Positions 2,914-26,392 of a stretch of DNA of 64,000 nucleotides are shown in pieces. The notes beneath the pieces are model-generated. The model was given only the letters and a program-made list of their open reading frames with translations. It was not told the DNA's origin and did not search any database. Each line of letters begins with the position of its first letter. Within the stretch, counting starts at the first letter, position 1. This DNA is from Chloroflexota bacterium (GTDB lineage Bacteria; Chloroflexota; Anaerolineae; JAAYZQ01), in assembly GCA_018606645.1 (NCBI GenBank), contig JAGVRI010000008.1, positions 68,036 through 132,035 on the forward strand. The letters are read 5' to 3'. The translations under genes were made by a program, and so were the position numbers.

Positions 2914-3870
2914 GTGGATCATTGGGTCGGGTGTCTTGTGAAGATCCTTGTCACTGGAGGGGCCGGATTCATCGGCTCGCACGTCGTGGATGCCTATGTG
3001 GCGGAAGGCCATGACGTGATCGTTGTGGACAATCTGAGCTCGGGAAAGCGGGAGAATGTGCATCCGGCGGCCCGGCTGGTGGAAATGGATATCGGTGAGC
3101 CTAACCTTCTCGATCTGTTCCTGGCCGAACGGCCAGATGTGGTGAACCATCACGCAGCCAACCCGAGCGTCGTCACGTCATTGCGACAGCCTCTGTTTGA
3201 TGCGACCCAGAACATCCTGGGGACTCTGAATCTGTTAGAGGCGGCGCGTCGAGCCGGCGTGGCCAAGTTCATCTATAGCTCGTCTGGTGGGGCGATGTAT
3301 GGTCATCCCCGTTACCTGCCGGTCGATGAGACCCATCCAGTGAACCCCGTTTCCCCGTATGGGCTGAGCAAGTATACCGGCGAGCGCTATGTAAGCCTCT
3401 ATGGAACGGCGTATGGCTTGCGCTGGACCAGTTTGCGGTATGCCAACGTCTATGGCCCGCGCCAGGACCTGTGCGGGGAAGCGGGTGTCGTGGCTATCTT
3501 TTGTCAGAACCTCGTGGACGGAGTTGCCCCCGAGATTCACGGGGATGGAGAGCAGACGCGAGATTTTGTGTACGTAGACGATTGCGCACGAGCGAACGTG
3601 CTGGCACTGGAAGGAGGCGACGGCCAGGCGTACAATGTGGGTACCGGAGTGAACACCAGCATCCGCATGCTATTGTGCACTTTGATGGAAGTGACGGGTC
3701 GCATTGTGGAGCCCAGGCATGGCCCCCCTCGGCCGGGCGATGTCCGCCATTCGCGGCTGGATTGTACCAAGATTAAACAGGAGTTAGGCTGGCAGGCAGA
3801 GATCGATCTTGCCGAGGGCCTGGAACGAACGTGGAGCTACTTTTTGCAGAAAGCGGCGGGTTGTCGCTAG
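2914..3870 (+). CDS. NAD-dependent sugar epimerase/dehydratase, UDP-glucose 4-epimerase family (SDR)
   Basis: KILVTGGAGFIGSHVVD Rossmann motif, YxxxK (YGLSKY); start may be GTG at 2914 or 2938. Confidence 0.75.
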   Translation: MDHWVGCLVKILVTGGAGFIGSHVVDAYVAEGHDVIVVDNLSSGKRENVHPAARLVEMDIGEPNLLDLFLAERPDVVNHHAANPSVVTSLRQPLFDATQNILGTLNLLEAARRAGVAKFIYSSSGGAMYGHPRYLPVDETHPVNPVSPYGLSKYTGERYVSLYGTAYGLRWTSLRYANVYGPRQDLCGEAGVVAIFCQNLVDGVAPEIHGDGEQTRDFVYVDDCARANVLALEGGDGQAYNVGTGVNTSIRMLLCTLMEVTGRIVEPRHGPPRPGDVRHSRLDCTKIKQELGWQAEIDLAEGLERTWSYFLQKAAGCR

Positions 3871-4408: not shown

Positions 4409-5527
4409 GTGGGGGAGTCCGGGTTTAGGTTGGGCCGGTCTGACGGACAGAGTTTGTCAGATCGGCGGAGCCTGCCCACAATTTTGCCCATCACATGGAG
4501 GACTAGATTGAGGATTTTGATAACCGGGGGGGCCGGTTTCATCGGGAGCAACCTGGCTCACCGGCTGATCGGACAGGGCCATGACGTGGTCGTCTATGAT
4601 AATTTATCGCGGCGAGGCGCGGACCAGAATGTCGCCTGGCTGCGAACCGAGCACGGCGATGCCTGGAGGTTGCTCCAGGCGGACATCCGCGATTTCGAGA
4701 CGCTGCGTGAAGCCGCAGCCGAGGTGGAGGTTGTCTATCACCTGGCTTCCCAGGTAGCGGTGACAACCTCTGTGCAAGACCCACGGTACGATTTTGAAGT
4801 GAACGCCCTAGGTACCTTCAACGTATTGGAGGCAGCGCGGCTTTCGGACCGCCGTCCTATCGTCCTCTACGCTTCCACCAACAAAGTCTATGGTGGGATG
4901 GAAGAGGTAGCCGTGATCGAGGGCGAGACTCGGTACGCCTACCGTGATTTCCCCTACGGCATTGCCGAGACCCATCCTCTCGACTTTCACTCGCCCTACG
5001 GTTGTTCCAAAGGAGCTGGCGATCAGTATGTGCGCGATTACGCCCGCATCTATGGCCTGCCGACGGTGGTCTTCCGTCAGTCGTGCATCTATGGTCCACG
5101 GCAATTCGGCGTCGAAGATCAAGGATGGGTTGCCTGGTTCCTGATTGCGGCCGTGACCGGCCAGCCGATCACCATTTACGGCGATGGTAAGCAGGTGCGC
5201 GACGTGTTGTGGGTGGATGACCTGTTGGACCTGTACCAAAAGGCGGTGGACCAGATCGAGATCTCTGCCGGGCAGGTCTATAACGTGGGAGGTGGACCGG
5301 ACAATACTCTGGCCGTGTGGAGCGAGTTGGGGCCGATGCTGGAGGATATCCTGGGTCGTCGCATCGAGGTGACCTACAGCGACTGGCGTCCCGGCGATCA
5401 GCGTATCTTTGTCGCGGACATCCGCAAGGCGGAGCGGGAGCTGGGATGGCGGCCCCGGGTGGGGAAGGAGGAGGGTGTGCGCCGCCTGGCAGCCTGGGTG
5501 GTGGAACATCGGCAGTTGTTTGTGTAG
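4409..5527 (+). CDS. NAD-dependent epimerase, CDP-paratose/tyvelose 2-epimerase-like (SDR)
   Basis: ILITGGAGFIGSNLAHRL..VVYDNLSRRGADQNVAWL resembles the Tyv/RfbE N-terminus; true start probably near 4500 (ORF track start 4409 is upstream of the Rossmann motif). Confidence 0.6.
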   Translation: MGESGFRLGRSDGQSLSDRRSLPTILPITWRTRLRILITGGAGFIGSNLAHRLIGQGHDVVVYDNLSRRGADQNVAWLRTEHGDAWRLLQADIRDFETLREAAAEVEVVYHLASQVAVTTSVQDPRYDFEVNALGTFNVLEAARLSDRRPIVLYASTNKVYGGMEEVAVIEGETRYAYRDFPYGIAETHPLDFHSPYGCSKGAGDQYVRDYARIYGLPTVVFRQSCIYGPRQFGVEDQGWVAWFLIAAVTGQPITIYGDGKQVRDVLWVDDLLDLYQKAVDQIEISAGQVYNVGGGPDNTLAVWSELGPMLEDILGRRIEVTYSDWRPGDQRIFVADIRKAERELGWRPRVGKEEGVRRLAAWVVEHRQLFV

Positions 5528-5715
5528 TGAGTAACATCCCGAAGACCACCTCGTTTCGGTGTACGGCTGAGGAGCGGGAAAGGCTTCTCTCGACGTTGCG
5601 AGAATCTCTGGCGACCAGAGAGAGCATCGTGTTTGCCTACGAGTACGGCTCGTTCTGGGTATGGATCTGAAGCCATTGCGTCACGCGGCTCTGAAGGAAG
5701 CGATGAATACAACGG

Positions 5716-6717
5716 TTGTTTCTGGAAAAGGATGATTTCGTGGCTTCTTATCTGGTGACCGGCTGTGCTGGCTTTATCGGATGGAAGGTGGCCGAGTTCC
5801 TGTTGGCTGAGGGCCACACCGTTGTCGGGGTGGATAATCTGAACGACGCCTACGACGTGCGCTTGAAGCGATGGCGCCTCACCCGGCTCCAGGACCAGCC
5901 GAATTTCACCTTCCACTGGTTGGATATCACCGACCGATCCGCGTTAGAACGTTCAACGTTCAATGTTCAACGTTTCGACGCCGTGATCAACCTGGCGGCA
6001 CGCGCCGGGGTGCGGCCCTCGGTGGAGAACCCGTGGGTGTACTATGAGACCAATGTGATGGGAACTCTGAACCTGCTGGAGCTGTGTCGGGAATTGGGGA
6101 TTGCCAAGTTTGTCCAGGCCTCAAGCTCCAGCGTGTATGGTCAAGGGAACCCGATGCCCTACCGCGAGGATCAGAACACCGACCATCCGCCTTCGCCCTA
6201 TGCGGCCTCGAAGAAAGCTGCGGAGACGTTGTGTTCGACCTATCATTCTCTCCATGGGCTGGACATTACCGTCCTCCGCTACTTTACGGTGTATGGTCCG
6301 GCGGGGCGGCCGGACATGAGTCCGTTTCGCTTTGTGCAGTGGATCAGCGAGGGGCGGCCGGTGACGATCTATGGCGATGGCACGCAGTCGCGGGATTTCA
6401 CCTACGTCGACGACATTGCGCGCGGTACCCTGGCTGCGCTCCGGCCGCTAGGCTTTGAGGTGATCAACCTGGGATCGGATCGGCCGATCGGGCTGATGGA
6501 TGCGATCCGGGTCATCGAGAAGCTGGTCGGTCGGCGGGCGCTGGTGGAATACCAGCCGCGCCATCCGGCGGATGTAAAGGATACCTGGGCGGAGATCGGC
6601 AAGGCGGAGTGGATGTTGGGCTGGCGGCCGGAGGTAGCCTTTGAGGAGGGAATGGCGCGGGTGGTGGAGTGGTATCGCGAGAATCGGGCGTGGGCGCGAG
6701 AGGTAGAGACGGGGTGA
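5716..6717 (+). CDS. NAD-dependent epimerase, UDP-glucuronate 4-epimerase-like (SDR)
   Basis: VTGCAGFIGWKVAEFLL..VVGVDNLNDAYDVRLKRWRL..F.FHWLDITD resembles CapI/WbnF/Gla-type nucleotide-sugar epimerases; YxxxK present (YAASKKA). Confidence 0.7.
   Translation: MFLEKDDFVASYLVTGCAGFIGWKVAEFLLAEGHTVVGVDNLNDAYDVRLKRWRLTRLQDQPNFTFHWLDITDRSALERSTFNVQRFDAVINLAARAGVRPSVENPWVYYETNVMGTLNLLELCRELGIAKFVQASSSSVYGQGNPMPYREDQNTDHPPSPYAASKKAAETLCSTYHSLHGLDITVLRYFTVYGPAGRPDMSPFRFVQWISEGRPVTIYGDGTQSRDFTYVDDIARGTLAALRPLGFEVINLGSDRPIGLMDAIRVIEKLVGRRALVEYQPRHPADVKDTWAEIGKAEWMLGWRPEVAFEEGMARVVEWYRENRAWAREVETG
5943..5978 (+). repeat. in-frame heptanucleotide array (GTTCAAC)x~4-5 inside the epimerase CDS, encoding RSTFNVQRF
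   Basis: direct reading: gttagaa c gttcaac gttcaat gttcaac gtttcga; 21 nt = 3 units keeps frame. Confidence 0.8.
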
Positions 6718-6783
6718 GAGACTGAAGGGCTGGTGAGGGTGGATTAATGAAATGCCAATTGGCCTGTAAGCGGAGCATTCTCA

Positions 6784-6894
6784 ATGATCAGGGCTGAAGT
6801 CATCTGCAAAGGTTTGAACAAGCTGGACGAATGCCTGGCAATCCTCCAGGGGCTGCGCTCGTACACGTTCGAGGAATTCAGCGCCAATTGGTAA
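6784..6894 (+). pseudogene. HepT/DUF86-like (HEPN toxin) N-terminal fragment, 36 codons then stop
   Basis: translation MIRAEVICKGLNKLDECLAILQGLRSYTFEEFSANW resembles the N-terminus of DUF86/HepT proteins (...tfEEFl.n motif) but is far too short. Confidence 0.3.
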
Positions 6895-6895
6895 G

Positions 6896-7147
6896 ATGAG
6901 AGAACTGGCTGGGATGGGAAAATATGAATTTGGCCGCCTGTTAGGGGAGCGAAGCATTGTGTGGCATTATGGCCGGGAGGAACTGAAGGACGACCTGGCG
7001 TATGCGCGTGGTGAGCAACACTTTACCGGTCCTCAACCCGGTGATTGTCGGTTGGCTTGCTCTGCTTCACGAGCAATTCGGAGAGGTACGGATTCCGGCA
7101 GCGGTCTTGGAGGAGTTGTGCCTCACCGAAGATCTGCGCGGCTCTGA
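6896..7147 (+). pseudogene. UPF0175-family antitoxin-like fragment
   Basis: GKYEFGRLLGERSI... resembles UPF0175 proteins; overlaps the next fragment in another frame. Confidence 0.3.
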
Positions 7148-7205
7148 AGCGGTGCAAGAGGCAGTACAGGCGAAGGCGGAATGTGTGCTGTTTGATGAGC
7201 GGTAA
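7002..7205 (+). pseudogene. DUF3368 (PIN-like toxin) C-terminal fragment
   Basis: NTLPVLNPVIVGWLALLHEQFGEVRIPAAVLEEL resembles the C-terminal part of DUF3368 proteins, which pair with UPF0175; only 67 codons. Confidence 0.3.
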
Positions 7206-7442
7206 GGACGAAAGGCTGCAAAATCGCTGGGGTTAAGGGTTACGGGGACTCTAGGGGGTTTTGATTCGCGCCCAGCGTGAGGGCAAGATGCCAACGTTAC
7301 GAGAGCCGATGGAAGAACTGCAGGAGAAGGCAGGTTTTCGCATTGGAGCGGATTTGTTTGCTGAGTTGCTGAGAGCGGCCGACGAAGAATGAGCGCCTGC
7401 CATTTTCTTAAATCGCGTGGGCTACATGGGGGATGGTGGCAG

Positions 7443-7580
7443 CGATTCAGGTCGTCGAGAAGCTGGTGGGCCGGCGGTCGCTGGTGGAATACCAGCGCCG
7501 TGGCATCCGGCGGATGTGAAGGATACCTGGGCGGAGATCGGCAAGGCGGAACCGGATGTTGGGCTGGTGGCGAGATCCGG
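7443..7580 (+). pseudogene. degenerate, frame-broken duplicate of the 3-prime end of the 5716..6717 epimerase gene
   Basis: about 90% nucleotide identity to 6503..6637 (tcgagaagctgg...ctggtggaataccagc...ggatacctgggcggagatcggcaaggcgga...) with small indels. Confidence 0.75.
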
Positions 7581-7622
7581 TTGAGACTTTTTGCGACGGG
7601 ACGAGTATGCTAGCTTCCACAA

Positions 7623-7651
7623 GTGACATGGATGATGTTGTGAGATAGAAT
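7623..7651 (+). promoter_or_regulatory. candidate sigma70-type promoter (GTGACA -17- TAGAAT) upstream of the GT4/wzx block
   Basis: hexamer spacing read directly; about 110 nt upstream of the 7764 start. Confidence 0.3.
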
Positions 7652-7763
7652 GGGGCGGTCAGTCAAGGTCAAGGGAACAGCAATCGCATACCTGCTCTCT
7701 GGAGGGTTCAGGTTCTTAAATGCGGCTGCTAGGAACAGGTTGGGTCAGGGAGATACAGCGTAG

Positions 7764-8936
7764 ATGTCTGAGGAAAAGCGGTTGAAGGTGTTGTTTATTA
7801 CTGCCTGGTATCCCACAAAGGAACACCCAATAGAGGGCATATTTGTGCGGGAGCATGCCAGAGCTGTTCGGCTTTACGACGATGTTGTTGTGCTCCACTG
7901 TGCAGGACCAGATCAGGGATTGAGCAAGCTTTGGCGGTTGGAATTGGAGAGCGATGCCAGCCTTACACAAGGCATTCCAACCTATCGAGTATGGTATCGG
8001 AGATCGAGGCTTCCCAAGGTTTCTTACTTGGGCTACCTTCTTAGTAGCCTCTGGGCGTTCGCTACCGTTGTAAAAGGTGGATTTCGTCCAAACGTGATTC
8101 ATGGGCATATTTATCAAGCAGGCGTGCCAGCGGTTCTAATTGGCAGGATGTTCCGTATTCCGGTGATCATAAGTGAGCATTACTCTGCTTTTCCAAGGCA
8201 TTTACTCTCCCGTCGCGAACTCTTGAAAGCACGTCTTGCGTTCACTTCGGCAGATCTCGTTCTACCTGTAAGCTACGCACTAAAAAATGGAATTGAGCAC
8301 TGTGGCATTCGGGCAAAGTTTGAGGTTGTGCCGAATGTCGTTGATGTGTCTCTGTTCCATCCCCCCGCTAGCAGGAATTCCGCACATGCGCTGAAGAGAA
8401 TCCTGTTCGTGGGGTTGTTGGATACTACTCACATAAAGGGGGTGCCAGATCTGCTGCAGGCGTTAGCCCGGTTACGAGAAGAGCGGAATGACTGGCATTT
8501 AGATATCGTGGGGGATGGGCCTGCGCGTGATGAATATGAACGACAGGTTCTGGAACTTGGGCTTGCTGGCAAGGTTACGTTTCATGGTATCAAATCCAAG
8601 GAAGACGTTGCTGAGTTTATGCGTCAGGCAGACTTTTTCGCATTGCCCAGCCTTTGGGACAATTTGCCCTGTGCAGCGATTGAGGCCGTGGCAAGTGGGT
8701 TGCCTATAGTTGCGACTTGTGCAGGCGGGATCCCCGAGATCGTTAAAGATACGGAAATGGGTTTCCTTGTACCACCGGGCAATGTGGTTGAGCTATCGAA
8801 AGCGATGGTGCGGATGATAGAGTGTTTAAATGAATTCGACCGCTGTGCAATTGCGGAGGAGGCCCGCAATCGATATGGGTTCGAGTCAGTGGGCGGTTTG
8901 ATGCATTCTATATATGCGAAGTATGGTGGGGGATGA
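7764..8936 (+). CDS. glycosyltransferase family 4 (GT-B fold)
   Basis: C-terminal PSLWDNLPCAAIEAVASGLPIVATCAGGIPEIV GT4 signature; lower GC than flanks. Confidence 0.75.
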   Translation: MSEEKRLKVLFITAWYPTKEHPIEGIFVREHARAVRLYDDVVVLHCAGPDQGLSKLWRLELESDASLTQGIPTYRVWYRRSRLPKVSYLGYLLSSLWAFATVVKGGFRPNVIHGHIYQAGVPAVLIGRMFRIPVIISEHYSAFPRHLLSRRELLKARLAFTSADLVLPVSYALKNGIEHCGIRAKFEVVPNVVDVSLFHPPASRNSAHALKRILFVGLLDTTHIKGVPDLLQALARLREERNDWHLDIVGDGPARDEYERQVLELGLAGKVTFHGIKSKEDVAEFMRQADFFALPSLWDNLPCAAIEAVASGLPIVATCAGGIPEIVKDTEMGFLVPPGNVVELSKAMVRMIECLNEFDRCAIAEEARNRYGFESVGGLMHSIYAKYGGG

Positions 8937-9046
8937 CTCTAACCGTTTAGCTCCCGAGAAGCTTGTTGCAGGCGGACAACAAGGATTATCCTTGCCCGAT
9001 GCAGAGCAGGAGAGTTTGAACTTTTAGAGGTCCTGAGCATTTCTCA

Positions 9047-10354
9047 ATGACTCGGAGAATCGTCGCATTGGTAAGAGACAAAGGCAGTAGAGCTACGTTT
9101 GCTCGAAATGTCACCTTAACTTTTTTTGTTCATGTCTTCTCTCTCCTCTTAGGAATTGCCACTTCTGCGATTATTGCCCGCCAGTTAGGGCCCGAGGGCA
9201 AGGGTGTCATGAACCTGGCTCTATTGTTGCCCGGGATGCTGGGGCTTTTCTTGAGTAGTGGGATTGGAGTGGCGAACGTGTACTTTGTGAGCTCGAGGCG
9301 TCTAAATGTGCCTACCCTTACAGCGAACTCCACTTGCTACGCTATGCTCTCCTTACTTGCTGGCGTCGGTATAATGGCCATTTTGGTTCCCACAGGTTGG
9401 CTGCAAATGTTAGTGCCGGGGGTTCCCATCTGGATCGTCCTGCTGACGATGTTGGCGCTTCCGATCGAGTTGCTCCGTGGTTACTTCAACGCAATTCTAC
9501 AAGGACTCCAACGAATTATTGCTGTCAACATAGTCAGTCTGGCTCAAAGTGCACTGGCGCTGACGTTCACTTTTGTGCTTGTTCTTGGCTTCCAACTGGG
9601 TGTGCTTGGTGCTGTCTTGTCTTCCTTGATGGCTGGAAGTATGGGCCTCATGAGCGTAGCTGTTCTTTTGCGCCGGGAAGGAGGCGTTTTCAGACCACGC
9701 CTGGATTTTATTGTTATGCGCTCGATGCTGTCCTTTGGCCTGCGAGGGCATGTGGGTAACGTTCTGCAATTCTTCAACTACCGCCTAGACCTGTTTGTTG
9801 TAAACTATTTCCTGGGACCGACAGCCGTAGGAATCTATAGCGTGTCAGTACGGCTTGCCGAGCTGTTGTGGTATCTTCCGAATGCGGTAGGCTTTGTTCT
9901 CTTTCCGAAAGCTGCAGCTAGCAAGCCGGAAGCGCTAAATGTCTTCACACCGAGAATCTTACGCACAACACTGGTTTTGACGGCGCTGGGCGCTCTTGGA
10001 CTCGCGCTCCTCGGCCGACCTGTCATACAGTTCATATACTCTTTCGCTTTTATTGAGGCTTATGTTCCGATGCTCGTGCTCTTGCCCGGTGTGGTACTGT
10101 TGGGAGGTTCTAAGGTACTGACTAATGAGATCGCTGGACGGGGCTACCCGCATTACAATTCCATAACCTCTGGCCTGGGACTTATACTGACATTGCTGCT
10201 GGACCTGCTGTTCATTCCACAATATGGTATAGTTGGTGCCTCCTTGGCATCCAGTCTCGCGTACACAGTGATTTTCTTTGCTGCAGCTACTTGCTATCGC
10301 GCTGTTAGTCGAAGGTCGGAAAAAATTGCACCTATCGGGTCGGTCGAACGATAG
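9047..10354 (+). CDS. wzx: Wzx-like oligosaccharide flippase (MOP/polysaccharide biosynthesis protein family)
   Basis: 435 aa, about 12 predicted TM helices, typical flippase layout and placement among GTs. Confidence 0.65.
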   Translation: MTRRIVALVRDKGSRATFARNVTLTFFVHVFSLLLGIATSAIIARQLGPEGKGVMNLALLLPGMLGLFLSSGIGVANVYFVSSRRLNVPTLTANSTCYAMLSLLAGVGIMAILVPTGWLQMLVPGVPIWIVLLTMLALPIELLRGYFNAILQGLQRIIAVNIVSLAQSALALTFTFVLVLGFQLGVLGAVLSSLMAGSMGLMSVAVLLRREGGVFRPRLDFIVMRSMLSFGLRGHVGNVLQFFNYRLDLFVVNYFLGPTAVGIYSVSVRLAELLWYLPNAVGFVLFPKAAASKPEALNVFTPRILRTTLVLTALGALGLALLGRPVIQFIYSFAFIEAYVPMLVLLPGVVLLGGSKVLTNEIAGRGYPHYNSITSGLGLILTLLLDLLFIPQYGIVGASLASSLAYTVIFFAAATCYRAVSRRSEKIAPIGSVER

Positions 10355-10436
10355 ATACGGACCACAGCAATTCCACGTGGCTGCGGCAGGGCTGGTTGCC
10401 GGGCAACACCCGTAAGACAGCCTGTGGGGCTGGTGG

Positions 10437-11795
10437 ATGACAGGACGCTGGGGGGAGATGAAACCGAAGGTGCCGAACCAAGTGCTCTTTATAGTGCATG
10501 ATTTTCCTCCACTGGGTGGCGGCAATGTGATGCGTGCACTAAAATTTATCAAGTATCTACCCGAATTTGGTTGGCAGCCTATCGTTCTCACGGTTGACAG
10601 CAAGTACTACCGGCCAGATTTACTGGATTATGCGTTATTAGAAGACCTTTCCACAACGACCCCAGTCTACCGGACTCGTAGTCTTCGCAAGGGGTACGAG
10701 CAAACGACTTCCGTTCGCCGATGCGCGCCGAGCAACAACAAAGCTCGTGCTGGATGGTTGTATAAGGCCGAGGACTGGTTAGTGGGTGGGTTAAGGATGG
10801 ATAACTTTCCTGGCCTCCGCTGGTTGCCGTATGCCTGTGCACACGCTCGAGTCGTTTTGGATCAAGCGCAGCGTGTAGACTTGATATTCACTACCTCACC
10901 ACCGCACGATGTTCATATGATCGGGCTTGTGTTGAGTAAGACTTATCGCTTGCCTTGGGTGGCAGACTTTCGCGATGGATGGATGGGTACTCAGATGTTT
11001 GTGTCACCCCATCCTTTGCGAAGATGGTTTGATAGAACTTGCGAGAGGTGCGTCATTTACAATGCGACGAGAATCATTTGTGCAACTGATCCCATCGCTA
11101 ATAACTTCAGCCAGCGTTATCGGGAGGCAAGGAACAAGATTCATACCCTATATAACGGGTTTGACCCTGGTGACTTTGAGATGCACGGCCCAACGTCAAA
11201 TGACGAAAACACGTTCTGTCTTGCATACGTGGGGTCAATGGGCTTACCGCATCGGAGTCCCGAGTTCTTCCTTAAGGCTGTCCGTTCTCTGGCCAGTAAG
11301 AATAAGGCTTTTGCGCAAAAGTGCAGAATTAGGTTTGTTGGACCTGTATGGCATTTTGACCTTACTGGTATGATCCACAACTTTGGAGTCAGTTCATTGT
11401 GCTCGGCCGTTGGGGCTGTTTCCCATGAACGGGCTGTACATTTGATGCAACAGGCAGATGTTTTGTTGTTATTCCTTAACGATCACGGGTTTGGTAGTGA
11501 TAGCATACTGACCGGTAAGTTTGGCGAGTATGTTGCGGCTCGGAAGCCGATTCTGGCAATGGTTCCAGAGGGAATCGCCGCGGATTTTATACGACAATAC
11601 GAGCTTGGCATTGTTGTCAGCCCTAATGATGTGACTGGCATAGAGCAGGCACTGTGTGAGCTGTTCTATCGCTGGCAGAGAGAAGAGTTACGGAATCCGG
11701 ATGTCTCGCAGTTGCTAGAACTGTTCAATCGCAGGCGAACCACAGAGAAGTTGGCGAGGATTTTTGGCGAGGCCATATTGTCCAGTGGGGTCTAA
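10437..11795 (+). CDS. glycosyltransferase, GT4-like with N-terminal glycosyltransferase-4-like domain
   Basis: N-terminus LFIVHDFPPLGGGNVMRALKFIKYLPEFGWQPIVLT; GT-B C-terminal half; alternative start at 10458. Confidence 0.6.
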   Translation: MTGRWGEMKPKVPNQVLFIVHDFPPLGGGNVMRALKFIKYLPEFGWQPIVLTVDSKYYRPDLLDYALLEDLSTTTPVYRTRSLRKGYEQTTSVRRCAPSNNKARAGWLYKAEDWLVGGLRMDNFPGLRWLPYACAHARVVLDQAQRVDLIFTTSPPHDVHMIGLVLSKTYRLPWVADFRDGWMGTQMFVSPHPLRRWFDRTCERCVIYNATRIICATDPIANNFSQRYREARNKIHTLYNGFDPGDFEMHGPTSNDENTFCLAYVGSMGLPHRSPEFFLKAVRSLASKNKAFAQKCRIRFVGPVWHFDLTGMIHNFGVSSLCSAVGAVSHERAVHLMQQADVLLLFLNDHGFGSDSILTGKFGEYVAARKPILAMVPEGIAADFIRQYELGIVVSPNDVTGIEQALCELFYRWQREELRNPDVSQLLELFNRRRTTEKLARIFGEAILSSGV

Positions 11796-11848
11796 GAGAA
11801 AACTGTTGAGCCCCGAAAGACGACAGTAACGATAATGGAGAGTTAACC

Positions 11849-12826
11849 TTGCGGACCTGCCCAACAGGGTATTCGACCGTAGGTGAGCAGAGCGGTAATC
11901 TGAAGGTGGGTGTTGTGTTGGTGAATTGGAACGGTGGCGAGTTGACAATACCCTGTATCAATTCGATCCTGGCTTCAAGTTATGCCCCGTGGCGAATATT
12001 AGTTATTGACAACGCTTCAACAGATGGATCGCCGGATCAGATCGCCAAGGTTTTCCCTGAGGTAATCCTTATCAGGAACAAAGAGAACCTTGGGTTCGCA
12101 GGGGGCAATAACATTGGTATTCGCGAGCTTATGCGAGCTGGTGCGGACTTGGTATGGATCCTGAATAATGACACCGTTATTGATGAAAAGTGCCTGGAGG
12201 CATTGGTACGGCAGATGGAAAAGGAACCAGACATTGCGGCCGCTACAGGAAAAATCCTGTATGAGACACCGCCAAATCGGATATGGTATGCTGGAGGATA
12301 CTGGCGGTACTGGTCTATGACCGCTCCTCACCGAGGACGGCTGGAAGTGGACAAAGGACAATACGACTGTGCGGCTGATGTGGATTTCATTTCCGGTTGC
12401 TGTATGTTGGTGAGGCATTGGGCCTTGGAAAGAAATGGCCTATTCAATGAACGGTATTTCGCCTACTTTGAAGATGTTGAGTGGTGTCTACGGGCGAGGA
12501 GTGCTGGCTTGCGTCTGCACTATGTTCCAAAGGCTGTCTTGTGGCATAAAGTCGCAGCTAGTGTACACAAAAATGCGATGGGTATAAGCGGTGGAAAGTC
12601 ACCACCGCTTGTGTATTACCTGACAACCCGTAATCATATCCTTTTGATTCGTCAGTATGCCGATTGGCCTTGGCAATGGATGTCAGCGCTGGTTTGTCTG
12701 CTGACTAGTCGTCTCTATTTGTCCTTGGGTCTAACTGTACTGGGGCGGTGGGACAAATTGCATAATCTGTGGCAAGGCGTATATGAAGGTTTGACAGATG
12801 GTCTGTGCTGTGACGTGGCTACGTAA
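11849..12826 (+). CDS. glycosyltransferase family 2 (rhamnosyltransferase/WbbL-like)
   Basis: VVLVNWNGGELTIPCINSIL...ILVIDNASTDGS and DxD region typical of GT2. Confidence 0.75.
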   Translation: MRTCPTGYSTVGEQSGNLKVGVVLVNWNGGELTIPCINSILASSYAPWRILVIDNASTDGSPDQIAKVFPEVILIRNKENLGFAGGNNIGIRELMRAGADLVWILNNDTVIDEKCLEALVRQMEKEPDIAAATGKILYETPPNRIWYAGGYWRYWSMTAPHRGRLEVDKGQYDCAADVDFISGCCMLVRHWALERNGLFNERYFAYFEDVEWCLRARSAGLRLHYVPKAVLWHKVAASVHKNAMGISGGKSPPLVYYLTTRNHILLIRQYADWPWQWMSALVCLLTSRLYLSLGLTVLGRWDKLHNLWQGVYEGLTDGLCCDVAT

Positions 12827-14105
12827 AGGTTTTCTGTTCTTGGCAGTGGTAGCCGCGACAATGCCTCGGCTGGTGGGCTCAGCCTATCTCAACCTGGCAT
12901 CCGTTTATCTGTTCCGTGGATTGTCGCAGAGTCATGTCTCTTTTTCGTATACAGCCGAACGTGCAGTATACGTGACAGAGGAAATAGGAGCGCGGGAATT
13001 GCAGCGAGCTAGTACATGGGCTAAGGCGGGATCAAACGTTGACGGTGATCATCCCCGTCTTCTCTGTGTGGCATTACGTGCAGCGTTCGGCCGTATGGAC
13101 TGGGGCGAGGTCGTGGATTCTGACTCGTCTTGTGACGATCTCAGCCTTAGAGCTCGAGCAGCGCCTTGGGCGGCCGTGGAGGGTCTGCGGCAGCTGCAGC
13201 GAGGCCGGCTTTCAGAAGCGCGGTATAGCTTCCGTCGATCTCTTGTCCAAGGCACAGGATTACTGAGCTTGTCCTTGGATCCATGGTTAAGGCAGGTTCG
13301 CGAGTCAGACGTTGACAGCCAGCTTGCTGGGACAGTGCTTCAGGCTGATGCTCCTCGCTTTCTTGTCGGGCGTATGGTGAATTATGAATGGCGTCCGAGT
13401 CCAGAACCTGTCTCCAAAGATTGGATGCTGGTGGGATATGACCTTGACGAAAGAGCGTTAGAACTCGGAGAGATGGTTGGGATGTCTATCTTCTGGCAGC
13501 CAAGAAATCCGGGTGCCCAGCCAGAAGCGGGTTGGCTGCGGGTTGGTGATTTCTGGCGTGAGGATTTGCGCTTGGTGAATCTGATCCCGGACGCGGGCTT
13601 TGAGTGGGAGGCAGAGGGTCAACCGGGCTGGTATGGTCCGTCTGATGCAACTCGGATTATACGCGTCGAGCGTAACGGCTACATGACCTATGCGAAAGCG
13701 ATCATGGCGAATCCAACTGGTGGAGGTACGATCGTCTCGACTCCAATTATGCCATTAGGGCGCGATTGCGCTTACCTGATCGGGGGATGGGTACGTAGTG
13801 AAGGCGGAGGTCCAACCTTGAGCGTAGTTTGGGCTGGGCTCGAGGATAAACCCGACGATCGCGCATTTCTTAACCTAATGGAGGGGATCAGAGACCTGCC
13901 ATGGACTCACGTTTCTGTGTTGGTTACTTCTCCTAAATCCGGAGCACGTGGGGTCTCAGTTTATGCCAGTAACTGGGCCGGTATTCGGCCTGAGGCTATG
14001 CGCCTTCCGGCACTCGTGGTGGTTGACAATATATTTCTAATTCCACTTTCGGTTCCCGGTGCAGCCAATCCGTGTGCCTTCTACGGCCTTAACAATGAAC
14101 AGTGA
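12798..14105 (+). CDS. secreted hypothetical protein with C-terminal CBM4/9-like (jelly-roll carbohydrate-binding) region
   Basis: N-terminal signal-like LFLAVVAATMPRLVGSA; C-terminal pattern NLIPDAGFEWE..GWYG...Y.LIGGWVRSEGGG...VVDNIF resembles CBM_4_9; no catalytic domain recognized; alternative start 12861. Confidence 0.45.
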   Translation: MVCAVTWLRKGFLFLAVVAATMPRLVGSAYLNLASVYLFRGLSQSHVSFSYTAERAVYVTEEIGARELQRASTWAKAGSNVDGDHPRLLCVALRAAFGRMDWGEVVDSDSSCDDLSLRARAAPWAAVEGLRQLQRGRLSEARYSFRRSLVQGTGLLSLSLDPWLRQVRESDVDSQLAGTVLQADAPRFLVGRMVNYEWRPSPEPVSKDWMLVGYDLDERALELGEMVGMSIFWQPRNPGAQPEAGWLRVGDFWREDLRLVNLIPDAGFEWEAEGQPGWYGPSDATRIIRVERNGYMTYAKAIMANPTGGGTIVSTPIMPLGRDCAYLIGGWVRSEGGGPTLSVVWAGLEDKPDDRAFLNLMEGIRDLPWTHVSVLVTSPKSGARGVSVYASNWAGIRPEAMRLPALVVVDNIFLIPLSVPGAANPCAFYGLNNEQ

Positions 14106-14147
14106 GCCGTGGTTGGTTAGGCAGGCCAGCAGAATAGTGATAACAGG

Positions 14148-15704: not shown

Positions 15705-15754
15705 ATGGTATTAGGATTCAGGGCTTTAATAGGCCATAAGGCGATACAAATGGT

Positions 15755-16981
15755 GTGAGCGATTCTATGCAGCGCACTAGGTTGCGGATCGTCATCCCCA
15801 CGCTCCACTATTTCCCTGATTTCCCTAGCGGTTCAGCCCGCCTCGCGTTTGATGAAGCGCTGCTACTAGCTAACCTCGGTCATGAAGTGTATGTTCTCAC
15901 ACAGGACATTAGAGGGGTTATGCCGGAATATTGTTTGCAGGATGGCCTTCATGTTCTGCGTTATCCAAGCCCACGGGCTGGCGTGTTTGACCCTAGACGC
16001 ATAACAATGCATCAGGAGCGAGCGAAGGACTTGTTGTCGCGCTACGTTGGCAATCAGGTGGATCTGGTCCACGGGCACTCTTTACTCCAGTTCGACGGTA
16101 CCTTGTCGCTGTATTATGGAAAGTGCAGGCAGGGCTATTCTGTACATTCACCGGTGCTCTTGGAGATGCGGGCTGCCAGTCGGGGAGTGCCGGTGCTAAA
16201 GCGTTGGTGGTTGAGAATGGTCGGGCGCTTGGCACATCGGATTGAGCGCCGGTGTCTAGCGAGTTCTGATTTCATTACGGTCGAATCTAACTATACAAGT
16301 TCTCTGCTGGGGGAGCTTCACGGTGACAGAATACTCAAGAAGACGCGGGTGATTCCAGGGTGGGTCGATGTGGAGAGATTCAGAATTATTCCCGATCGTG
16401 AAGAAGTGAAGTCCGCGTTGGGATGGCCGACAGATGTTCCTGTTTTCTTCACCCTGCGGCGCTTGGAGCCCCGCATGGGATTAGACCGTTTACTGAAGGC
16501 GCTGCATCAGGTCAAGCTAGCAGGGTGGCGGTTTCACATGATGATTGGGGGTGACGGCTCGTTGCGCACCCGGTTGGAGAGACTGACGTTCGAGCTGCAA
16601 CTCGATAAGCAGGTGTGCTTCGCTGGCTTTGTGCCTGAAGAGAAGCTGCCTCTGATGTATGGCGCGGCCGATGCATTCATTTTGCCCACGGCAGAGCTAG
16701 AGTGTTTTGGTCTGATTGCTTTGGAATCCCTGGCTTGCGGACGGCCAGTATTGGCGACGCCTGTCGCCGTGATACCTGAGCTTCTGGGTCACTTTGAACC
16801 GCGATGGATGGCTCAGAACGCCAGTGAAGATGGTATAGCGCAGTTGCTAATAGAGTTCCTGAGTGGGAAGCTGCCATCATATGAGCCGGAGTCGTTGAGA
16901 CGCACAGTGGTCAAGCACTACTCGAAAGAACGTGTGCTTGAAGAATTGGTAGCAGTAGCTTTGTCTGCAGGCAGACTGTAA
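15755..16981 (+). CDS. glycosyltransferase family 4
   Basis: ILPTAELECFGLIALESLACGRPVLATPVAVIPELL GT4 E-x7-E region. Confidence 0.75.
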   Translation: MSDSMQRTRLRIVIPTLHYFPDFPSGSARLAFDEALLLANLGHEVYVLTQDIRGVMPEYCLQDGLHVLRYPSPRAGVFDPRRITMHQERAKDLLSRYVGNQVDLVHGHSLLQFDGTLSLYYGKCRQGYSVHSPVLLEMRAASRGVPVLKRWWLRMVGRLAHRIERRCLASSDFITVESNYTSSLLGELHGDRILKKTRVIPGWVDVERFRIIPDREEVKSALGWPTDVPVFFTLRRLEPRMGLDRLLKALHQVKLAGWRFHMMIGGDGSLRTRLERLTFELQLDKQVCFAGFVPEEKLPLMYGAADAFILPTAELECFGLIALESLACGRPVLATPVAVIPELLGHFEPRWMAQNASEDGIAQLLIEFLSGKLPSYEPESLRRTVVKHYSKERVLEELVAVALSAGRL

Positions 16982-24317: not shown

Positions 24318-24951
24318 GCACAGAAGTATCCCGGTGTCCGATGGCGTCTACCGCCGCTACGGCAAACGCTTGTTGGACCTGGCGCTGACGGTTCCCGCGC
24401 TCGTTCTGCTCTCGCCGCTGCTGGCGCTCATCGCCGTCCTAGTGCGGGTGACGATGGGCGAGCCGGTGCTCTTCCGCCAGCAGCGTCCCGGGTTGCACGG
24501 CCAGCCGTTTATTCTGTACAAGTTCCGCACCATGACCGACGCCTATGACGCTGAAGGTCGAGTCCGTTCAGAGGCCGATCGTCTTACCCCGTTGGGCCGC
24601 TTGTTGCGGAGCGCCAGCCTGGATGAACTGCCCGAGCTGTGGAACGTGCTCAAGGGGGAAATGAGCCTGGTCGGCCCGCGGCCGCTGCTGATGAAATACC
24701 TGGAGCGCTACACGCCAGAGCAGGCCCGCCGCCATGAAGTGAGACCGGGCCTCACCGGTTGGGCGCAGGTCAACGGCCGGAATGCCATCTCCTGGGAGCA
24801 AAAGTTTGCCCTGGACGTGTGGTATGTGGACCATTTCTCGTTCTGGCTGGATCTGAAGATCATGGCGCTGACCGCCTGGAAAATCCTGAAGCGTGAGGGG
24901 ATCAGCCAGCCGGGCCATGTGACGATGGAAGAGTTCAGAGGTTCCTTGTAA
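24310..24951 (+). CDS. pglC: small phosphoglycosyl transferase, PglC-type (undecaprenyl-phosphate N,N-diacetylbacillosamine 1-phosphate transferase family)
   Basis: colinear with C. jejuni PglC: single N-terminal TM ([25 protein letters not shown]), [47 protein letters not shown]-terminal GHVTMEEF; start ATG 24310 overlaps the HEPN stop. Confidence 0.85.
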
Positions 24952-25217
24952 TGTCTAAACCGACGACGATAGTCTACACAAGTCATGCTCGGGAAAAGTT
25001 CGAGCTTCTGGCTCGCTATGGCTTCCCAATCACCCAGCAGCAAGTAGAAGATACAATCCGCGAGCCCACTTTGGTAATCAAGCAAACCGGTGGTAGACTG
25101 ATCGCGCAGAAGGAGATCGGCCAACACCATCTGTTGCGTGTGATTTACCGGATAGAAGGACAATTCGCCATTGTGATCACCTTCTATCCGGCGCGGAGGA
25201 GGCGTTATGAAACTTAG
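24951..25217 (+). CDS. DUF4258-family protein (putative toxin of a DUF4258/DUF2283 pair)
   Basis: 88 aa, ...HAREKFELLARYGFPITQQQVEDTI... pattern; followed by overlapping DUF2283-like gene. Confidence 0.45.
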   Translation: MSKPTTIVYTSHAREKFELLARYGFPITQQQVEDTIREPTLVIKQTGGRLIAQKEIGQHHLLRVIYRIEGQFAIVITFYPARRRRYET

Positions 25218-25425
25218 CTATGACCGCTCTGAGGATATTCTAACCATCGAGACCACAGAAGAAGGCGTCATTGAATATGCCGAACAAGTAGAGAGCTTTA
25301 TCGCGCACTTTAGTCACGATGGTAGACTGCTCGTACTTGAGATTCTAGATGCCAGCGAATTCCTGACCAATGTCTTCAAGAGTACGGTCCGTGATCCGGG
25401 AGAAAAGTTGCTGGTGACCGCCTAA
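25207..25425 (+). CDS. DUF2283-family protein (putative antitoxin partner)
   Basis: [47 protein letters not shown] matches the DUF2283 pattern (..YD.E.D.LYI). Confidence 0.5.
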
Positions 25426-25433
25426 CGGATTCG

Positions 25434-25955
25434 ATGATGGCAAACCGGGAGATTATCACACCGCAAGCGATGGCGAGCAGGCCATCGGCTGTGCAAAGGC
25501 CATCCTGCGCTTCTGTGCAGATTGCCTTTCTCGATAGGAACCAGGCCATCGCGGAGCTGGTCGAATGCGCCGGACGGCTGCTAGCGTGTGATGATCGGGT
25601 ACTTGCGGTCGGGTTGTTCGGTTCGCTGGCCCGGAGCCAAGCCCTGCCCAGGAGCGACGCTGACCTGCTCATTGTGAGAGAGCATCCCCAGCAACGCTGG
25701 TTCGACCGCATCCCGAGTTATGCCGACGCCTTTGCAGGCGTTTCGTTGCCGGTGGATGTCTTTCCCTACACGGTGGAGGAACTCAGGCGGATGATCGCGG
25801 GTCGTTCCGGCTTTCTGCGCACTATCCTGAGAGAAGTGATTCCCCTCGGCGGGGATGCTGAGATTTGGAGCGACTTATCAGGGGTCAGAGCTCGGCGGTC
25901 AGAGGTCAGGGATCAGGGGGATGACGGATGCCGATCAGGTCGGCGAAGGACTTGA
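25434..25955 (+). CDS. MNT-type nucleotidyltransferase; C-terminus extended through a heptamer array
   Basis: [25 protein letters not shown] motif; the last about 25 codons are read through the GGTCAGA-type array. Confidence 0.55.
25881..25922 (+). repeat. heptanucleotide array (GGTCAGA-like, about 6 units) at the MNT/four-helix-bundle gene junction
   Basis: GGGTCAG AGCTCGG CGGTCAG AGGTCAG GGATCAG GGGGATG. Confidence 0.75.
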
Positions 25956-26308
25956 TGGTATATCAGAAAGCCTATCAACTGGCAATGGCGGTGTTCGAGG
26001 CAAGCAAGGAGTTCCCACCGGAAGAACGGTTTGCCTTGACCAGCCAGATTCGCCGCTCGTCACGTTCGGTGTGCCTGAATCTGCGCGAGGCGTGGGCCAA
26101 GCGTCGCTATGAAGCACATTTCGTGAGCAAACTCACCGATTGTGACGGCGAAAACGGTGAAACTGACTCGTCGCTCGATTTTGCCCGGGATTGCGGCTAC
26201 ATCAATTCCGATGAGCACGCTCAGCTCACTGCCCTCTGCGCGGAAATCGGCAAAATGCTCGGTAGCATGCTCAACAACCCCACCCCATTTCTGATCTGTG
26301 ACCGCTGA
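25928..26308 (+). CDS. four-helix-bundle protein (23S rRNA intervening-sequence protein family; HEPN-related)
   Basis: [45 protein letters not shown] matches the conserved N-terminal half of this family. Confidence 0.6.
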
Positions 26309-26318
26309 TCTCTGACTT
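26290..26318 (-). repeat. heptanucleotide array in inverted orientation (reverse complement AGTCAGA GATCAGC GGTCACA GATCAG)
   Basis: direct reading; forms the 3-prime end of the four-helix-bundle CDS. Confidence 0.7.
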
Positions 26319-26325
26319 CTGTGGC

Positions 26326-26366
26326 ATCAGCCAGCCGGGGCATGTGACGGTAGAAGAGTTCAGATG
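26326..26366 (+). repeat. direct duplicate of the pglC 3-prime end (24901..24941), about 37/41 identical
   Basis: atcagccagccgggccatgtgacgatggaagagttcagagg versus atcagccagccggggcatgtgacggtagaagagttcagatg. Confidence 0.85.
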
Positions 26367-26392
26367 TCAGAGATCAGCGTCAAGGGGGATGG
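26357..26392 (+). repeat. heptanucleotide array (GTTCAGA TGTCAGA GATCAGC GTCAAGG GGGATGG) continuing from the duplicated pglC end
   Basis: direct reading. Confidence 0.7.

Follow-up and report, generated by a model that had tools for sequence, protein, structure and literature searches.

The gap of about 1 kb on the 3′ side of a sugar-epimerase gene (positions 6718-7763 of the window, i.e., of the whole 64,000-nucleotide stretch of DNA analysed) is probably the eroded remnant of a toxin-antitoxin (TA) cassette, which would have been inserted in the 3′ part of the epimerase gene with a long duplication of its target (estimated probability, about 0.6). The junction is read, by analogy, as an old, inactivated case of "insertion with long target duplication", here with RNase-type TA cassettes, and the route by which small selfish gene pairs get into these sugar-synthesis loci seems to be repeatable and to duplicate the target. 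The movement of chromosomal TA pairs between genomes is poorly understood: they are termed mobile, and most of them carry no mobility gene.

No intact gene occurs in the gap, in agreement with the initial annotation, in which only fragments had been discerned. The remains of two TA pairs come first, and a part of the epimerase gene then recurs in broken form. The features of the junction, all on the plus strand, are as follows.

5740..6717, plus strand: intact NAD-dependent sugar epimerase (UDP-glucuronate 4-epimerase-like), the target gene (Pfam Epimerase, E 2e-64; GDP_Man_Dehyd, E 4e-63)
6490..6632, plus strand: left copy of the segment, within the epimerase ORF at approximately codons 251-298 of its 325 (alignments; self-blastn)
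6784..6894, plus strand: HepT (DUF86) RNase toxin, first 36 codons, ending at TAA (phmmer, then PF01934 in homologues)
6896..7001 (right end approximate), plus strand: UPF0175 antitoxin, C-terminal half (Pfam PF03683, E 4.4e-7, profile positions 40-74 of 75)
7002..7392, plus strand: PIN-like (DUF3368) toxin pseudogene, nearly full-length (BLASTP, tblastx, tblastn, Pfam)
7430..7575, plus strand: right copy of the segment, non-coding relic with two frameshifting indels, GC 65.8% (alignments; self-blastn)
7576..7763, plus strand: low-GC spacer (51.6%), the left edge of a low-GC glycosyltransferase block of about 10.7 kb (GC profile, segment GC)

Toxin-antitoxin remnants and the duplicated segment

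The epimerase comprises 325 amino acids, and its relatives in two other loci, L083 and L002, are 82% and 72% identical, respectively. An identical protein is recorded (P0009); exact-protein look-ups, run with P0009 and with the epimerase at two alternative starts, gave no match.

The first fragment in the gap, a 36-codon ORF described earlier as a HepT-like start, gave no direct Pfam or NCBIfam match. A word-indexed search recovered the fragment alone, and an exhaustive search was needed for its homologues; exhaustive phmmer then detected five proteins (P0003, P0004, P0006, P0007 and P0008), with 65-77% identity across residues 1-35 (E 7e-6 to 3e-4). The four that were scanned (all except P0008) match the HepT-like family PF01934 from profile position 2, three of them above the Pfam cut-off, and the earlier description is thus upheld. 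Type VII HepT/MntA systems are recognized by a complete HEPN domain with an RX4-6H motif and by an adjacent MntA; here only the 36 N-terminal codons are left, and the catalytic C-terminal part is gone. The MntA partner is absent, as the 66 nt between the epimerase stop and the HepT start contain no MNT ORF. An MNT remnant upstream of the epimerase gene (5528-5670), by which an old MNT-HepT operon would have enclosed the intact epimerase, was suspected and set aside: BLASTP, NCBIfam and a homologue search were all negative for this segment, and its comparison with a small MNT profile (hhalign) gave an E-value of only 0.018, a weak lead.

The UPF0175-like piece was confirmed by the HMM search. 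Its N-terminal portion of about 39 profile positions is deleted, its ORF continues out of context to 7147, and it is 39% identical (E 6e-6) to the C-terminus of the UPF0175 protein of L002. The DUF3368-like C-terminus reported initially belongs to the family named (Pfam on 7261-7392, E 8e-6, at 26.1 bits slightly below the cut-off of 27.3), but it is the tail of an almost complete PIN pseudogene rather than a mere C-terminus. This pseudogene is collinear with the intact 160-residue toxin of L002, as seen by tblastx and by BLASTP (E 2e-16, with a visible gap), and by tblastn its two parts fall in two frames. Its lesions are an in-frame stop codon (TAA, 7203-7205), a +1 frameshift in the vicinity of 7257-7263, and the loss of about 30 codons after codon 40. 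An intact UPF0175/PIN pair would consist of two adjacent or overlapping ORFs with matches to PF03683 and PF11848; the family matches are present here, and both genes are damaged. The fragments thus represent the same families as known type VII HepT/MntA and UPF0175/PIN(DUF3368) pairs, with significant matches and in the usual gene order, but in contrast to those pairs every copy at the junction is truncated or disrupted.

Alignment of 6490-6632 with 7430-7575 yielded 125 matches, 18 mismatches and 3 gap columns over the 146-nt copy, the gaps representing 2 nt added after CCAG and 1 nt added at GGAG/GGAACC in the right copy. The segment is the strongest short-range direct repeat of the 64-kb window (self-blastn E 7e-41). 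The initial annotation had placed an indel-disrupted copy of about 90% identity at 6503..6637 and 7443..7580; the copy, its indels and its general location stand, while the identity is nearer 86-87% and the four ends were 5-13 nt off. The longest exact word common to both copies (32 nt) lies in the middle of the repeat rather than at an edge. The edges are sharp: in shuffle tests the similarity stopped at 6490/7430 on the left and at about 6632/7575 on the right. A protein-level resemblance past the end of the copy (RDPVETFCDG versus RPEVAFEEG) was considered and rejected, being not significant at the DNA level.

The right copy is sub-terminal: the last 85 nt of the gene (6633-6717) were not duplicated, so that the segment is an internal piece and not, as first described, the 3′ end proper. 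Owing to this missing stretch, continuity of the window copy with native downstream sequence cannot be checked, a point that was counted against the insertion. Differences between the copies at codon positions 1, 2 and 3 number 7, 3 and 8. The frameshifts, together with the loss of conserved residues in the right copy (LMDA to MVAA and PRHPAD to PWHPAD), bear out the earlier description of it as degenerate. The junction as a whole is dead DNA, with a present function unlikely.

The right copy begins 712 nt after the epimerase stop, and only TA-family matches occur within that distance. The GC content of the cargo (54.6%) is lower than that of the epimerase gene (61.2%), which in turn is lower than that of the right copy. 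Neither the ORF list nor Pfam revealed an integrase or transposase ORF in 6718-7763, and tyrosine or serine recombinase ORFs were absent both from this interval and from the cargo of the second island of the window and of loci L083 and L168 (see below). A tRNA search of positions 1-30000 was negative, no RNA families were detected in 5400-8000, and none of the cargo regions examined is bounded by terminal inverted repeats.

Contigs assembled independently from the short reads of run SRR16588181 (Logan) reproduce the structure: contig L082 corresponds to window positions 6580-7533 and contig L001 to positions 7521-18757. Both contigs break within the shared 32-mer, and short-read contigs end within the epimerase gene, at the repeat.

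Related junctions in the window and in other genomes

The layout of gene end, TA cargo and duplicated gene end had been proposed to recur, and this was supported by other loci. Within the window, the island near 23.2-26.7 kb, which had been singled out as the matching case, indeed consists of a 45-nt repeat flanking four intact small genes.

24898..24942, plus strand: left copy, the tail of a Bac_transf sugar-transferase gene, just past its Pfam domain
24951..26308, plus strand: cargo, all intact, comprising a DUF4258-like/DUF2283 pair, an MNT nucleotidyltransferase and a 23S_rRNA_IVP four-helix-bundle gene (Pfam, ORFs)
26323..26367, plus strand: right copy of the 45-nt tail of the sugar-transferase gene (89% identity, E 7e-9)

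The closest relative found is L083 (ERZ4756918), whose left flank is about 81% identical to that of the window at the nucleotide level over a 5.3-kb blastn alignment, with gene order in common over about 6 kb. In L083 the epimerase gene is followed by DUF5615 and DUF433 genes (minus strand), by a duplicate, 94 codons long, of the epimerase 3′ end, in which the stop is in register, and by UPF0175 and DUF3368 genes. The layout is the same, with another TA pair. A tract of 212 nt is perfectly identical, and like the window repeat it begins at GGGCTGATGG. Beyond this tract the L083 copy is diverged and still epimerase-coding, and the 36 nt to the left of it are about 67% identical (EIIDLGCDEPV versus EVINLGSDRPI). 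The last four codons differ between the two copies, such that the copy ends in REVEMG and the L083 gene in REVATE, the window gene ending in REVETG (each followed by the stop). Judging from these sequences, the mosaic would fit the recombination of two alleles better than a plain fill-in duplication. The repeat of the window and that of L083 begin at one and the same nucleotide; the two may share one ancestral event and may not be independent, which was counted against the insertion. The spacer 7576..7763 had no match in L083.

Locus L168 contains a different epimerase gene whose 3′ end occurs twice, with a DUF2281/PemK pair in between. The stop of the right-hand version overlaps the ATG of the next gene (ABC2), which identifies the right copy as the native end. 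An ORF following the IVP gene of the same locus was considered as a copy of the same epimerase and rejected; it proved to be the main part of a distinct epimerase gene that the IVP element interrupts, and the true duplication sits further to the right, around the PemK pair. Two further loci carry an MNT/HEPN pair between 77-nt repeats (L086) and an AbiEii-like gene between 76-nt repeats that overlap an epimerase 5′ end (L037). The direct repeats of adjacent gene ends that flank the PemK, MNT/HEPN and AbiEii modules on other contigs are 76-340 nt in length.

The same TA genes were also detected intact. In L002, MNT, HepT, UPF0175 and PIN genes are located directly upstream of the intact orthologous epimerase, in the order shown by the window fragments and then the relic, and in L006 the same set occurs in this order downstream of the orthologous epimerase. 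The recurrence of this order beside orthologous epimerases in two distant metagenome-assembled genomes marks the cargo as a recurrent companion of the gene and not a random visitor. Between the window, L083 and L002, identity is only 24-40% for the TA proteins, versus 72-82% for the epimerases. TA pairs also occur beside epimerases without flanking repeats (L172 and L173); these repeat-free pairs, and the missing MntA before HepT, were counted against the insertion. A plain tandem duplication involving the epimerase gene was observed in L005.

An empty (single-copy) site was found neither in a GTDB scan nor in two metagenome scans or the protein look-ups; L083 was the sole close relative retrieved, and its site is filled by other cargo. 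A third relative bearing the slot was lacking among about 170 loci, and a wobble-degenerate DNA pattern for DTWAEIGKAE had no match in metagenome contigs.

Proposed and alternative histories of the junction

In the proposed course of events, the original cassette would have comprised a HepT-type pair, the MntA partner of which was since lost, followed by a UPF0175/PIN-DUF3368 pair. Its entry into the 3′ part of the epimerase gene would have duplicated at least 143 nt of the target. The left copy is in frame, such that the epimerase stays intact, and the right copy, as useless DNA, would have decayed. A single later deletion may have joined HepT codon 36 to approximately codon 40 of UPF0175, and the PIN gene would have gained its stop and its frameshift and lost internal codons. 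When the low-GC glycosyltransferase block came in, everything to the right of 7575 would have been removed, including the remainder of the displaced gene end. Because no unoccupied site was found, we infer the insertion itself, as we do the origin of the duplication in the same event. The considerations counted in its favour were the anatomy of the repeat and the TA fragments, the loci L083, L168, L086 and L037, the second island of the window, the GC content of the cargo, the lack of mobility genes, and the agreement with published insertions with long target duplication.

The relic could instead descend from a full second copy of the gene, given that four TA genes precede the intact epimerase in L002. 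A [TA block + epimerase] unit would have been duplicated in tandem, or a new allele would have recombined beside the old one, and random deletions, tolerated because of redundancy, would have worn away one of the gene copies together with the TA genes, with no special insertion mechanism. This account is rather unlikely, although the gene order of L002 is that of the window fragments and then the relic, the relic is internal and truncated at either end, and plain tandem duplications of the epimerase exist (L005). The MNT-like N-terminal fragment at 5528-5670 would also favour it, but received no support from BLASTP, NCBIfam or the homologue search. In L083 a tandem unit is excluded, as the UPF0175/PIN pair after the copy differs from the DUF5615/DUF433 pair between the copies, and in L168, where the copy joins the next gene by overlapping stop and start, a tandem origin would need a precise second deletion. 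Random erosion likewise does not predict that the copies of the window and L083 should share their left edge to the nucleotide, unless a partial copy was inherited. No trace of a simple tandem duplication was found at the window junction, where 6633-6760 and 7579-7763 share no similarity; the downstream sequences differ in L083 and L168 too.

A single ancestral duplication in the common ancestor of the window and L083 was judged improbable as an explanation, though it would account for the repeats that begin at the same nucleotide of the same gene. The arms would then have served as a docking site at which TA cassettes were swapped by double crossover, and gene conversion would have kept each copy like its own gene. 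Each copy is in fact closest to the gene of its own genome, the 212-nt perfect tract of L083 resembles a conversion tract, and the cargo families differ, their proteins being far less similar than the epimerases. However, the UPF0175/PIN pair lies to the left of the copy in the window and to the right in L083, so that extra steps would be needed; the copy occurs in two genomes only, in which shared ancestry and independent events are inseparable, and the roughly 170 loci supplied no third bearer of the slot.

Chance similarity or an assembly artefact, i.e., a mis-joined strain variant of the epimerase amid small ORFs that are noise, has a negligible likelihood: the run is metagenome-like and short-read contigs break exactly at the repeat, but the repeat is highly significant, its frameshifts and lost conserved residues do not befit a functional strain allele, variants specific to the copy occur in independent Logan unitigs to either side of the shared 32-mer, and the fragments match their families significantly in the expected order.

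Comparison with known modes of insertion

Insertion with long target duplication has so far been described for restriction-modification (R-M) systems (Nobusato et al. 2000, Gene 259:99; Furuta, Abe & Kobayashi 2010, PMC2853133). The published repeats measure 46-423 bp and often span the stop or start codon of the neighbouring gene, which thereby survives (PMC2853133; PMC3874152). Furuta et al. (2010) recognized such insertions by repeats of >30 bp, a single occurrence of the repeated sequence at a related empty site, an insert of <20 kb with no other mobile-element genes, and R-M cargo. At the window junction, the repeat is 146 nt in length with 125 of 146 columns identical, and the insert of 712 nt contains no mobile-element genes. 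The cargo, however, consists of HepT, UPF0175 and PIN/DUF3368 remnants rather than R-M genes, and the junction is therefore filed as a variant and not as a strict member of the class.

As in the R-M insertions, the cargo of the loci presented here is small, of the addiction type, and devoid of transposase or integrase, and it is flanked by direct repeats of the target of tens to hundreds of base pairs (45, about 146, and 212-290 nt). In contrast to the R-M insertions, the cargo consists of RNase-type TA pairs (HepT, PIN, PemK, HEPN/MNT), and the published cases rest on comparison with empty sites, none of which was found here. The mechanism suggested by Furuta et al. relies on DNA double-strand breakage by the restriction enzyme (PMC2853133), which RNase toxins cannot supply. 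A literature search, incomplete in its coverage, returned no report of TA pairs that move by long target duplication. If TA pairs do use the R-M route, that route would be independent of DNA cleavage by the cargo and would give small selfish or defence modules in general a way into genomes.

Integrase-mediated islands insert at the 3′ terminus of a gene for a tRNA or a protein and bring along a surrogate 3′ end, which results in the attL/attR duplication. The present junctions resemble them in that the gene is kept whole and the duplicate or displaced end is found on the far side of the cargo, the right copy carrying the native end in L083 and L168. Unlike such islands, they contain no integrase gene in or near the cargo, which measures about 0.7-1.4 kb, and no tRNA is present at positions 1-30000 of the window; their repeats are long, imperfect and variable in extent, and not a short exact att core. 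Integron gene cassettes are marked by an attC site and a nearby IntI integrase; the ORF lists for 1-32 kb include no integrase-like ORFs, and the repeats derive from the coding part of the gene next to the cargo.

In Campbell-type integration, a single crossover brings in a circle that bears a piece of the target, and the cargo ends up flanked by two copies of the piece. This process, like homology-facilitated illegitimate recombination, is known mainly from suicide plasmids and laboratory constructs. It would predict both the mosaic identity in L083 and a right copy that starts abruptly and ends in native sequence. The likeliest mechanism for the proposed insertion, tentatively put forward at less than even odds, is single-crossover homologous integration of this kind, by circularised DNA with TA genes and an epimerase 3′-end fragment from a previous host, followed by gene conversion between the copies. 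A natural source of circular molecules combining TA genes and homology is hypothetical. Break repair or template switching with long staggered ends is a less probable alternative mechanism.

A broader and rather doubtful extension is that TA pairs, possibly along with the four-helix-bundle IVP genes, might be recombinase-free mobile cassettes in Chloroflexota and neighbouring phyla. A travelling fragment of a host gene end would then act as a homology arm, or "address", for insertion beside an orthologous gene by host recombination, which would duplicate the arm; the arms could subsequently allow excision as a circle and exchange of cargo. If true, such cassettes would explain the MNT-HepT-UPF0175-PIN order beside orthologous epimerases in different phyla (L002, L006 and the window). 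Target-duplicating entry of TA pairs would likewise explain the TA genes interleaved in the polysaccharide loci of these bacteria, and the gene-end relics that border variable glycosyltransferase blocks, which are useful landmarks in reconstructing the history of a locus. At the border of the present block, a promoter-like site (7623-7651, scan score 10/12) is located within the low-GC spacer.

An epimerase segment repeated across toxin–antitoxin remnants

Part of the UDP-glucuronate 4-epimerase-like gene (5740-6717, + strand) is found a second time within the junction that follows it (6718-7763). The segment 6490-6632 has a counterpart at 7430-7575 (125 matches, 18 mismatches, 3 gap columns), and in a self-comparison the pair was the strongest short-range direct repeat of the 64-kb window (E 7e-41). 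The structure was seen again in two independent Logan contigs from run SRR16588181, one corresponding to 6580-7533 and the other (L001) to 7521-18757, both of which stop within a 32-nt word common to gene and copy. The repeat described in the initial annotation is thus real, but it does not represent the extreme 3′ end of the gene. In shuffle tests, no similarity was detected left of 6490/7430 or right of ~6632/7575, so that the copy is a sharply bounded, sub-terminal piece, and the final 85 nt of the gene are missing from it.

Two insertions in the copy (2 nt after CCAG and 1 nt at GGAG/GGAACC) each cause a frameshift. The differences from the gene are distributed over codon positions 1/2/3 as 7/3/8, and some conserved residues have been lost (e.g., LMDA to MVAA and PRHPAD to PWHPAD), as expected from free decay. 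One cluster of changes, GAGTGGAT to GAACCGGAT, includes the 1-nt indel and creates AACCGGAT (7550-7557), the exact reverse complement of ATCCGGTT just past the right edge (7575-7582); it could be a single quasi-palindrome template-switch mutation.

The following toxin–antitoxin (TA) remnants lie between gene and copy:

6784-6894, HepT N-terminal fragment, a 36-codon ORF (phmmer relatives matching PF01934)
6896-~7001, UPF0175 antitoxin, C-terminal half only (profile positions 40-74 of 75; Pfam E 4.4e-7)
7002-7205, N-terminal part of a PIN-like toxin, the same toxin as the next piece (reads MRVVSNTLPVLNPVIVGWLALLHEQFGEVRIPAAVLEEL...)
7261-7392, DUF3368 match (Pfam E 8e-6, slightly under the Pfam cut-off)

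All three families originally proposed for these fragments were confirmed. The toxin pseudogene aligns collinearly with its intact homologue in L002, an Anaerolineae MAG (160 aa; BLASTP E 2e-16; tblastx); relative to that homologue, it carries an in-frame TAA at the position of a Q, is frameshifted near 7257-7263 (two frames in tblastn) and has lost ~30 codons. The 36-codon ORF gave no direct Pfam or NCBIfam match, and a word-indexed search returned nothing beyond the ORF itself. Five short proteins with 65-77% identity to residues 1-35 (E 7e-6 to 3e-4) came from an exhaustive phmmer search against 1.84 billion representatives; all four that were scanned matched PF01934 (HepT-like) from profile position 2, three of them above the Pfam cut-off, and the HepT assignment holds through these relatives. 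The five closest relatives (P0003, P0004, P0006, P0007 and P0008) are all 57-95 aa long and diverge or end past the N-terminal half; it therefore seems that truncation is common in this HepT subfamily, or that these copies are located at contig ends. The HepT fragment ends at codon 36 and the UPF0175 piece starts at the next codon, at about profile position 40, and one deletion is enough to explain both truncations. Searches of the junction for RNA families, tRNAs and terminal inverted repeats were negative. The junction is likely to be without present function.

A 47-codon ORF separating the two epimerase genes (5528-5670, ending ...RESIVFAYEYGSF) is similar to MNT antitoxins at their N-terminus and GS motif; the hhalign match to MNT is weak (E 0.018), and BLASTP, NCBIfam and a homologue search gave nothing. 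The same intergenic place in the closest relative, contig L083, holds a fragment (9740-9883) that looks DUF86-like, with no Pfam support.

Comparable layouts in relatives and other loci

Sequenced relatives of this organism are few. Among GTDB species representatives, the best epimerase is 72% identical (L002), and a degenerate DNA pattern matched nothing in metagenome contigs. A closer relative came from a protein search: P0010, 82% identical, is encoded on the 69-kb contig L083, whose gene order ahead of the epimerase agrees with that of the window for ~6 kb (5.3 kb of aligned flank, ~81% identical at the nucleotide level). This orthologous epimerase shows the same architecture with cargo from a different family, in the following order downstream of the gene:

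first, a DUF5615 toxin and DUF433 antitoxin, opposite strand
second, a copy (94 codons) of the 3′ end of the epimerase, its stop codon in phase with that of the gene
third, UPF0175 and a DUF3368 gene cut at its C-terminus
fourth, an unrelated variable block

Gene and copy in L083 share a perfectly identical tract of 212 nt, which starts at the same GGGCTGATGG as the window repeat. The 36 nt to its left are only ~67% identical, still epimerase-reading (EIIDLGCDEPV versus EVINLGSDRPI), and to its right the final four codons differ: the copy ends in REVEMG* (compare REVETG* in the window gene), the L083 gene in REVATE*. The L083 counterpart (6959-7890) of another window epimerase gene (2914-3870) was called as two overlapping ORFs of 134 and 191 aa and is probably frameshifted.

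The junction had also been likened to island 2, the second TA-type island of the window (24898-26367), and the two do share a layout, although the island 2 repeat is much shorter. There, a second copy (26323-26367; 89% identical, E 7e-9) exists of the last 45 nt but nine of a Bac_transf sugar-transferase gene (24898-24942), and the cargo comprises four intact small genes: a DUF4258-like/DUF2283 pair, an MNT nucleotidyltransferase and a 23S_rRNA_IVP (IVP) four-helix-bundle gene. In L168, an Anaerolineales MAG, another epimerase gene has its 3′ end duplicated, with a DUF2281/PemK pair separating the two copies; the stop of the right copy and the start codon of the gene after it overlap, and the right copy is thus the native end. 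Repeats of 77 nt enclose an MNT/HEPN pair in L086, and 76-nt repeats overlapping the epimerase 5′ end enclose an AbiEii-like gene in L037. With such layouts in L083, L168, L086 and L037, the proposal of a recurring combination of TA cargo and gene-end duplicate is broadly right, and we read the junction as an old, inactivated example of recurrent entry of small TA cassettes into these polysaccharide loci.

A survey of 1.73 Mb of fetched loci for direct-repeat pairs 300-4000 nt apart, leaving out protein-internal and multi-copy repeats, gave roughly a dozen pairs (a hand count with no matched control). TA-type cargo was enclosed by four of them (L037b, L083, L086 and L168) and a four-helix-bundle gene by one (L037a); the remainder include tandem gene copies and ordinary genes. 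The TA pairs of L172 and L173 had no flanking repeats. Among the fetched loci, fragments of this epimerase were found elsewhere only in L083 and L005. In the latter, a Poribacteria chromosome, a plain tandem duplication (7997-10150) covers a 288-aa gene together with codons 1-46 of the orthologous epimerase (158 nt, 82% identical); this gene has thus been partly copied there with no TA genes involved.

Origin of the duplication and the adjoining low-GC block

In the version that we favour, with a probability of about 35-40%, the chromosome would have recombined, by a single crossover, with a DNA circle bearing TA genes and a gene-end fragment, and gene conversion between the copies would have followed. 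The mosaic identity in L083 is better explained by the meeting of two epimerase alleles than by fill-in of a staggered break; this also applies to L168 and, less clearly, to the window, where the repeat includes a 54-nt segment (94% identical) and a 67-nt segment (85%). The duplication leaves the upstream ORF whole and native sequence ahead of the downstream gene, and the insertion is consequently near-neutral within an operon, which would favour its survival. No empty site was found among the relatives searched (GTDB, metagenome contigs, protein search).

The junction and its gene can also be read as a TA block flanked by epimerases, one of which has since decayed. Intact MntA, HepT, UPF0175 and PIN genes lie directly upstream of the epimerase in L002, and MNT, HepT-like, UPF0175 and PIN genes directly downstream in L006 (a Thermodesulfobacteriota MAG), in both cases in the order of the window fragments, which makes this arrangement of gene, TA remains and gene fragment readable in such terms. 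Between the window, L083 and L002, the TA proteins share only 24-40% identity, whereas the epimerases are 72-82% identical, and the cassettes are therefore not simple orthologues.

The architecture matches the “insertion with long target duplication” reported for restriction-modification systems (PMC2853133; PMC3874152), whose repeats of 46-423 bp often include a stop or start codon (PMC2853133); its TA cargo makes the present case a variant of this known rearrangement type. The mechanism was tentatively tied by the authors to DNA breakage by the cargo (PMC2853133). Here, unlike in those insertions, the cargo encodes RNases, so DNA breaks made by it cannot be the cause. Plain tandem duplication is excluded in the well-preserved cases, since in L083 the cargo does not reappear past the second copy and in L168 the copy is joined precisely to the next gene. 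For an integrase-type event, an integrase, a tRNA and a short exact core are missing.

The GC content changes along the junction as follows:

5740-6717, epimerase gene, 61.2%
TA debris, 54.6%
7430-7575, copy, 65.8%
7576-7763, 51.6%
7764-18271, glycosyltransferase block, 51.9%

The drop past the copy places its right edge at the left edge of the low-GC block, the arrival of which probably deleted what was left of the displaced gene end. At 7623-7651 there is a promoter-like site, a consensus match only. The block (~7600-18300) comprises 10.7 kb of glycosyltransferase, flippase and polymerase-like genes at ~52% GC, versus ~60% on either side, and its left edge adjoins the epimerase relic. Contig L001 stops at 18757, where no repeat is present; this end may reflect strain variation at the right border.

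Repeat arrays and IVP genes

A search for CAGAGGT arrays in the window gave 10 matches, versus 0 expected by chance. The IVP gene of island 2 (25928-26308) is bracketed by inverted arrays of a ~7-nt, CAGAGGT-like tandem repeat (region 25878-26385), located at 25878-25919 (plus strand), at 26290-26320 (reverse complement) and again past the 45-nt copy. In L168 (1204-1800), an IVP gene with inverted GGAGACAAG arrays lies inside, and splits, another epimerase gene; an IVP gene of L037 (6054-6954) lies between 89-nt direct repeats, and L173 3634-4044 belongs with these cases. The IVP gene and its arrays have the look of a small mobile element whose arms are the repeat arrays. Two in-frame CAGAGGT heptamer arrays (20109-20171 and 20595-20685) also occur in the CapF-like epimerase/cupin gene (19556-20848), adding protein runs, e.g., of 12 and 14 residues. 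Short GC-rich units of the CCCTTCGGC...GCTCAGGACAAG type, resembling miniature repeat elements, were observed in L168 (2168-2214, 2345-2390 and 3420-3467) and L052 (2927-3967), in frame within coding regions and again in the decayed copy.
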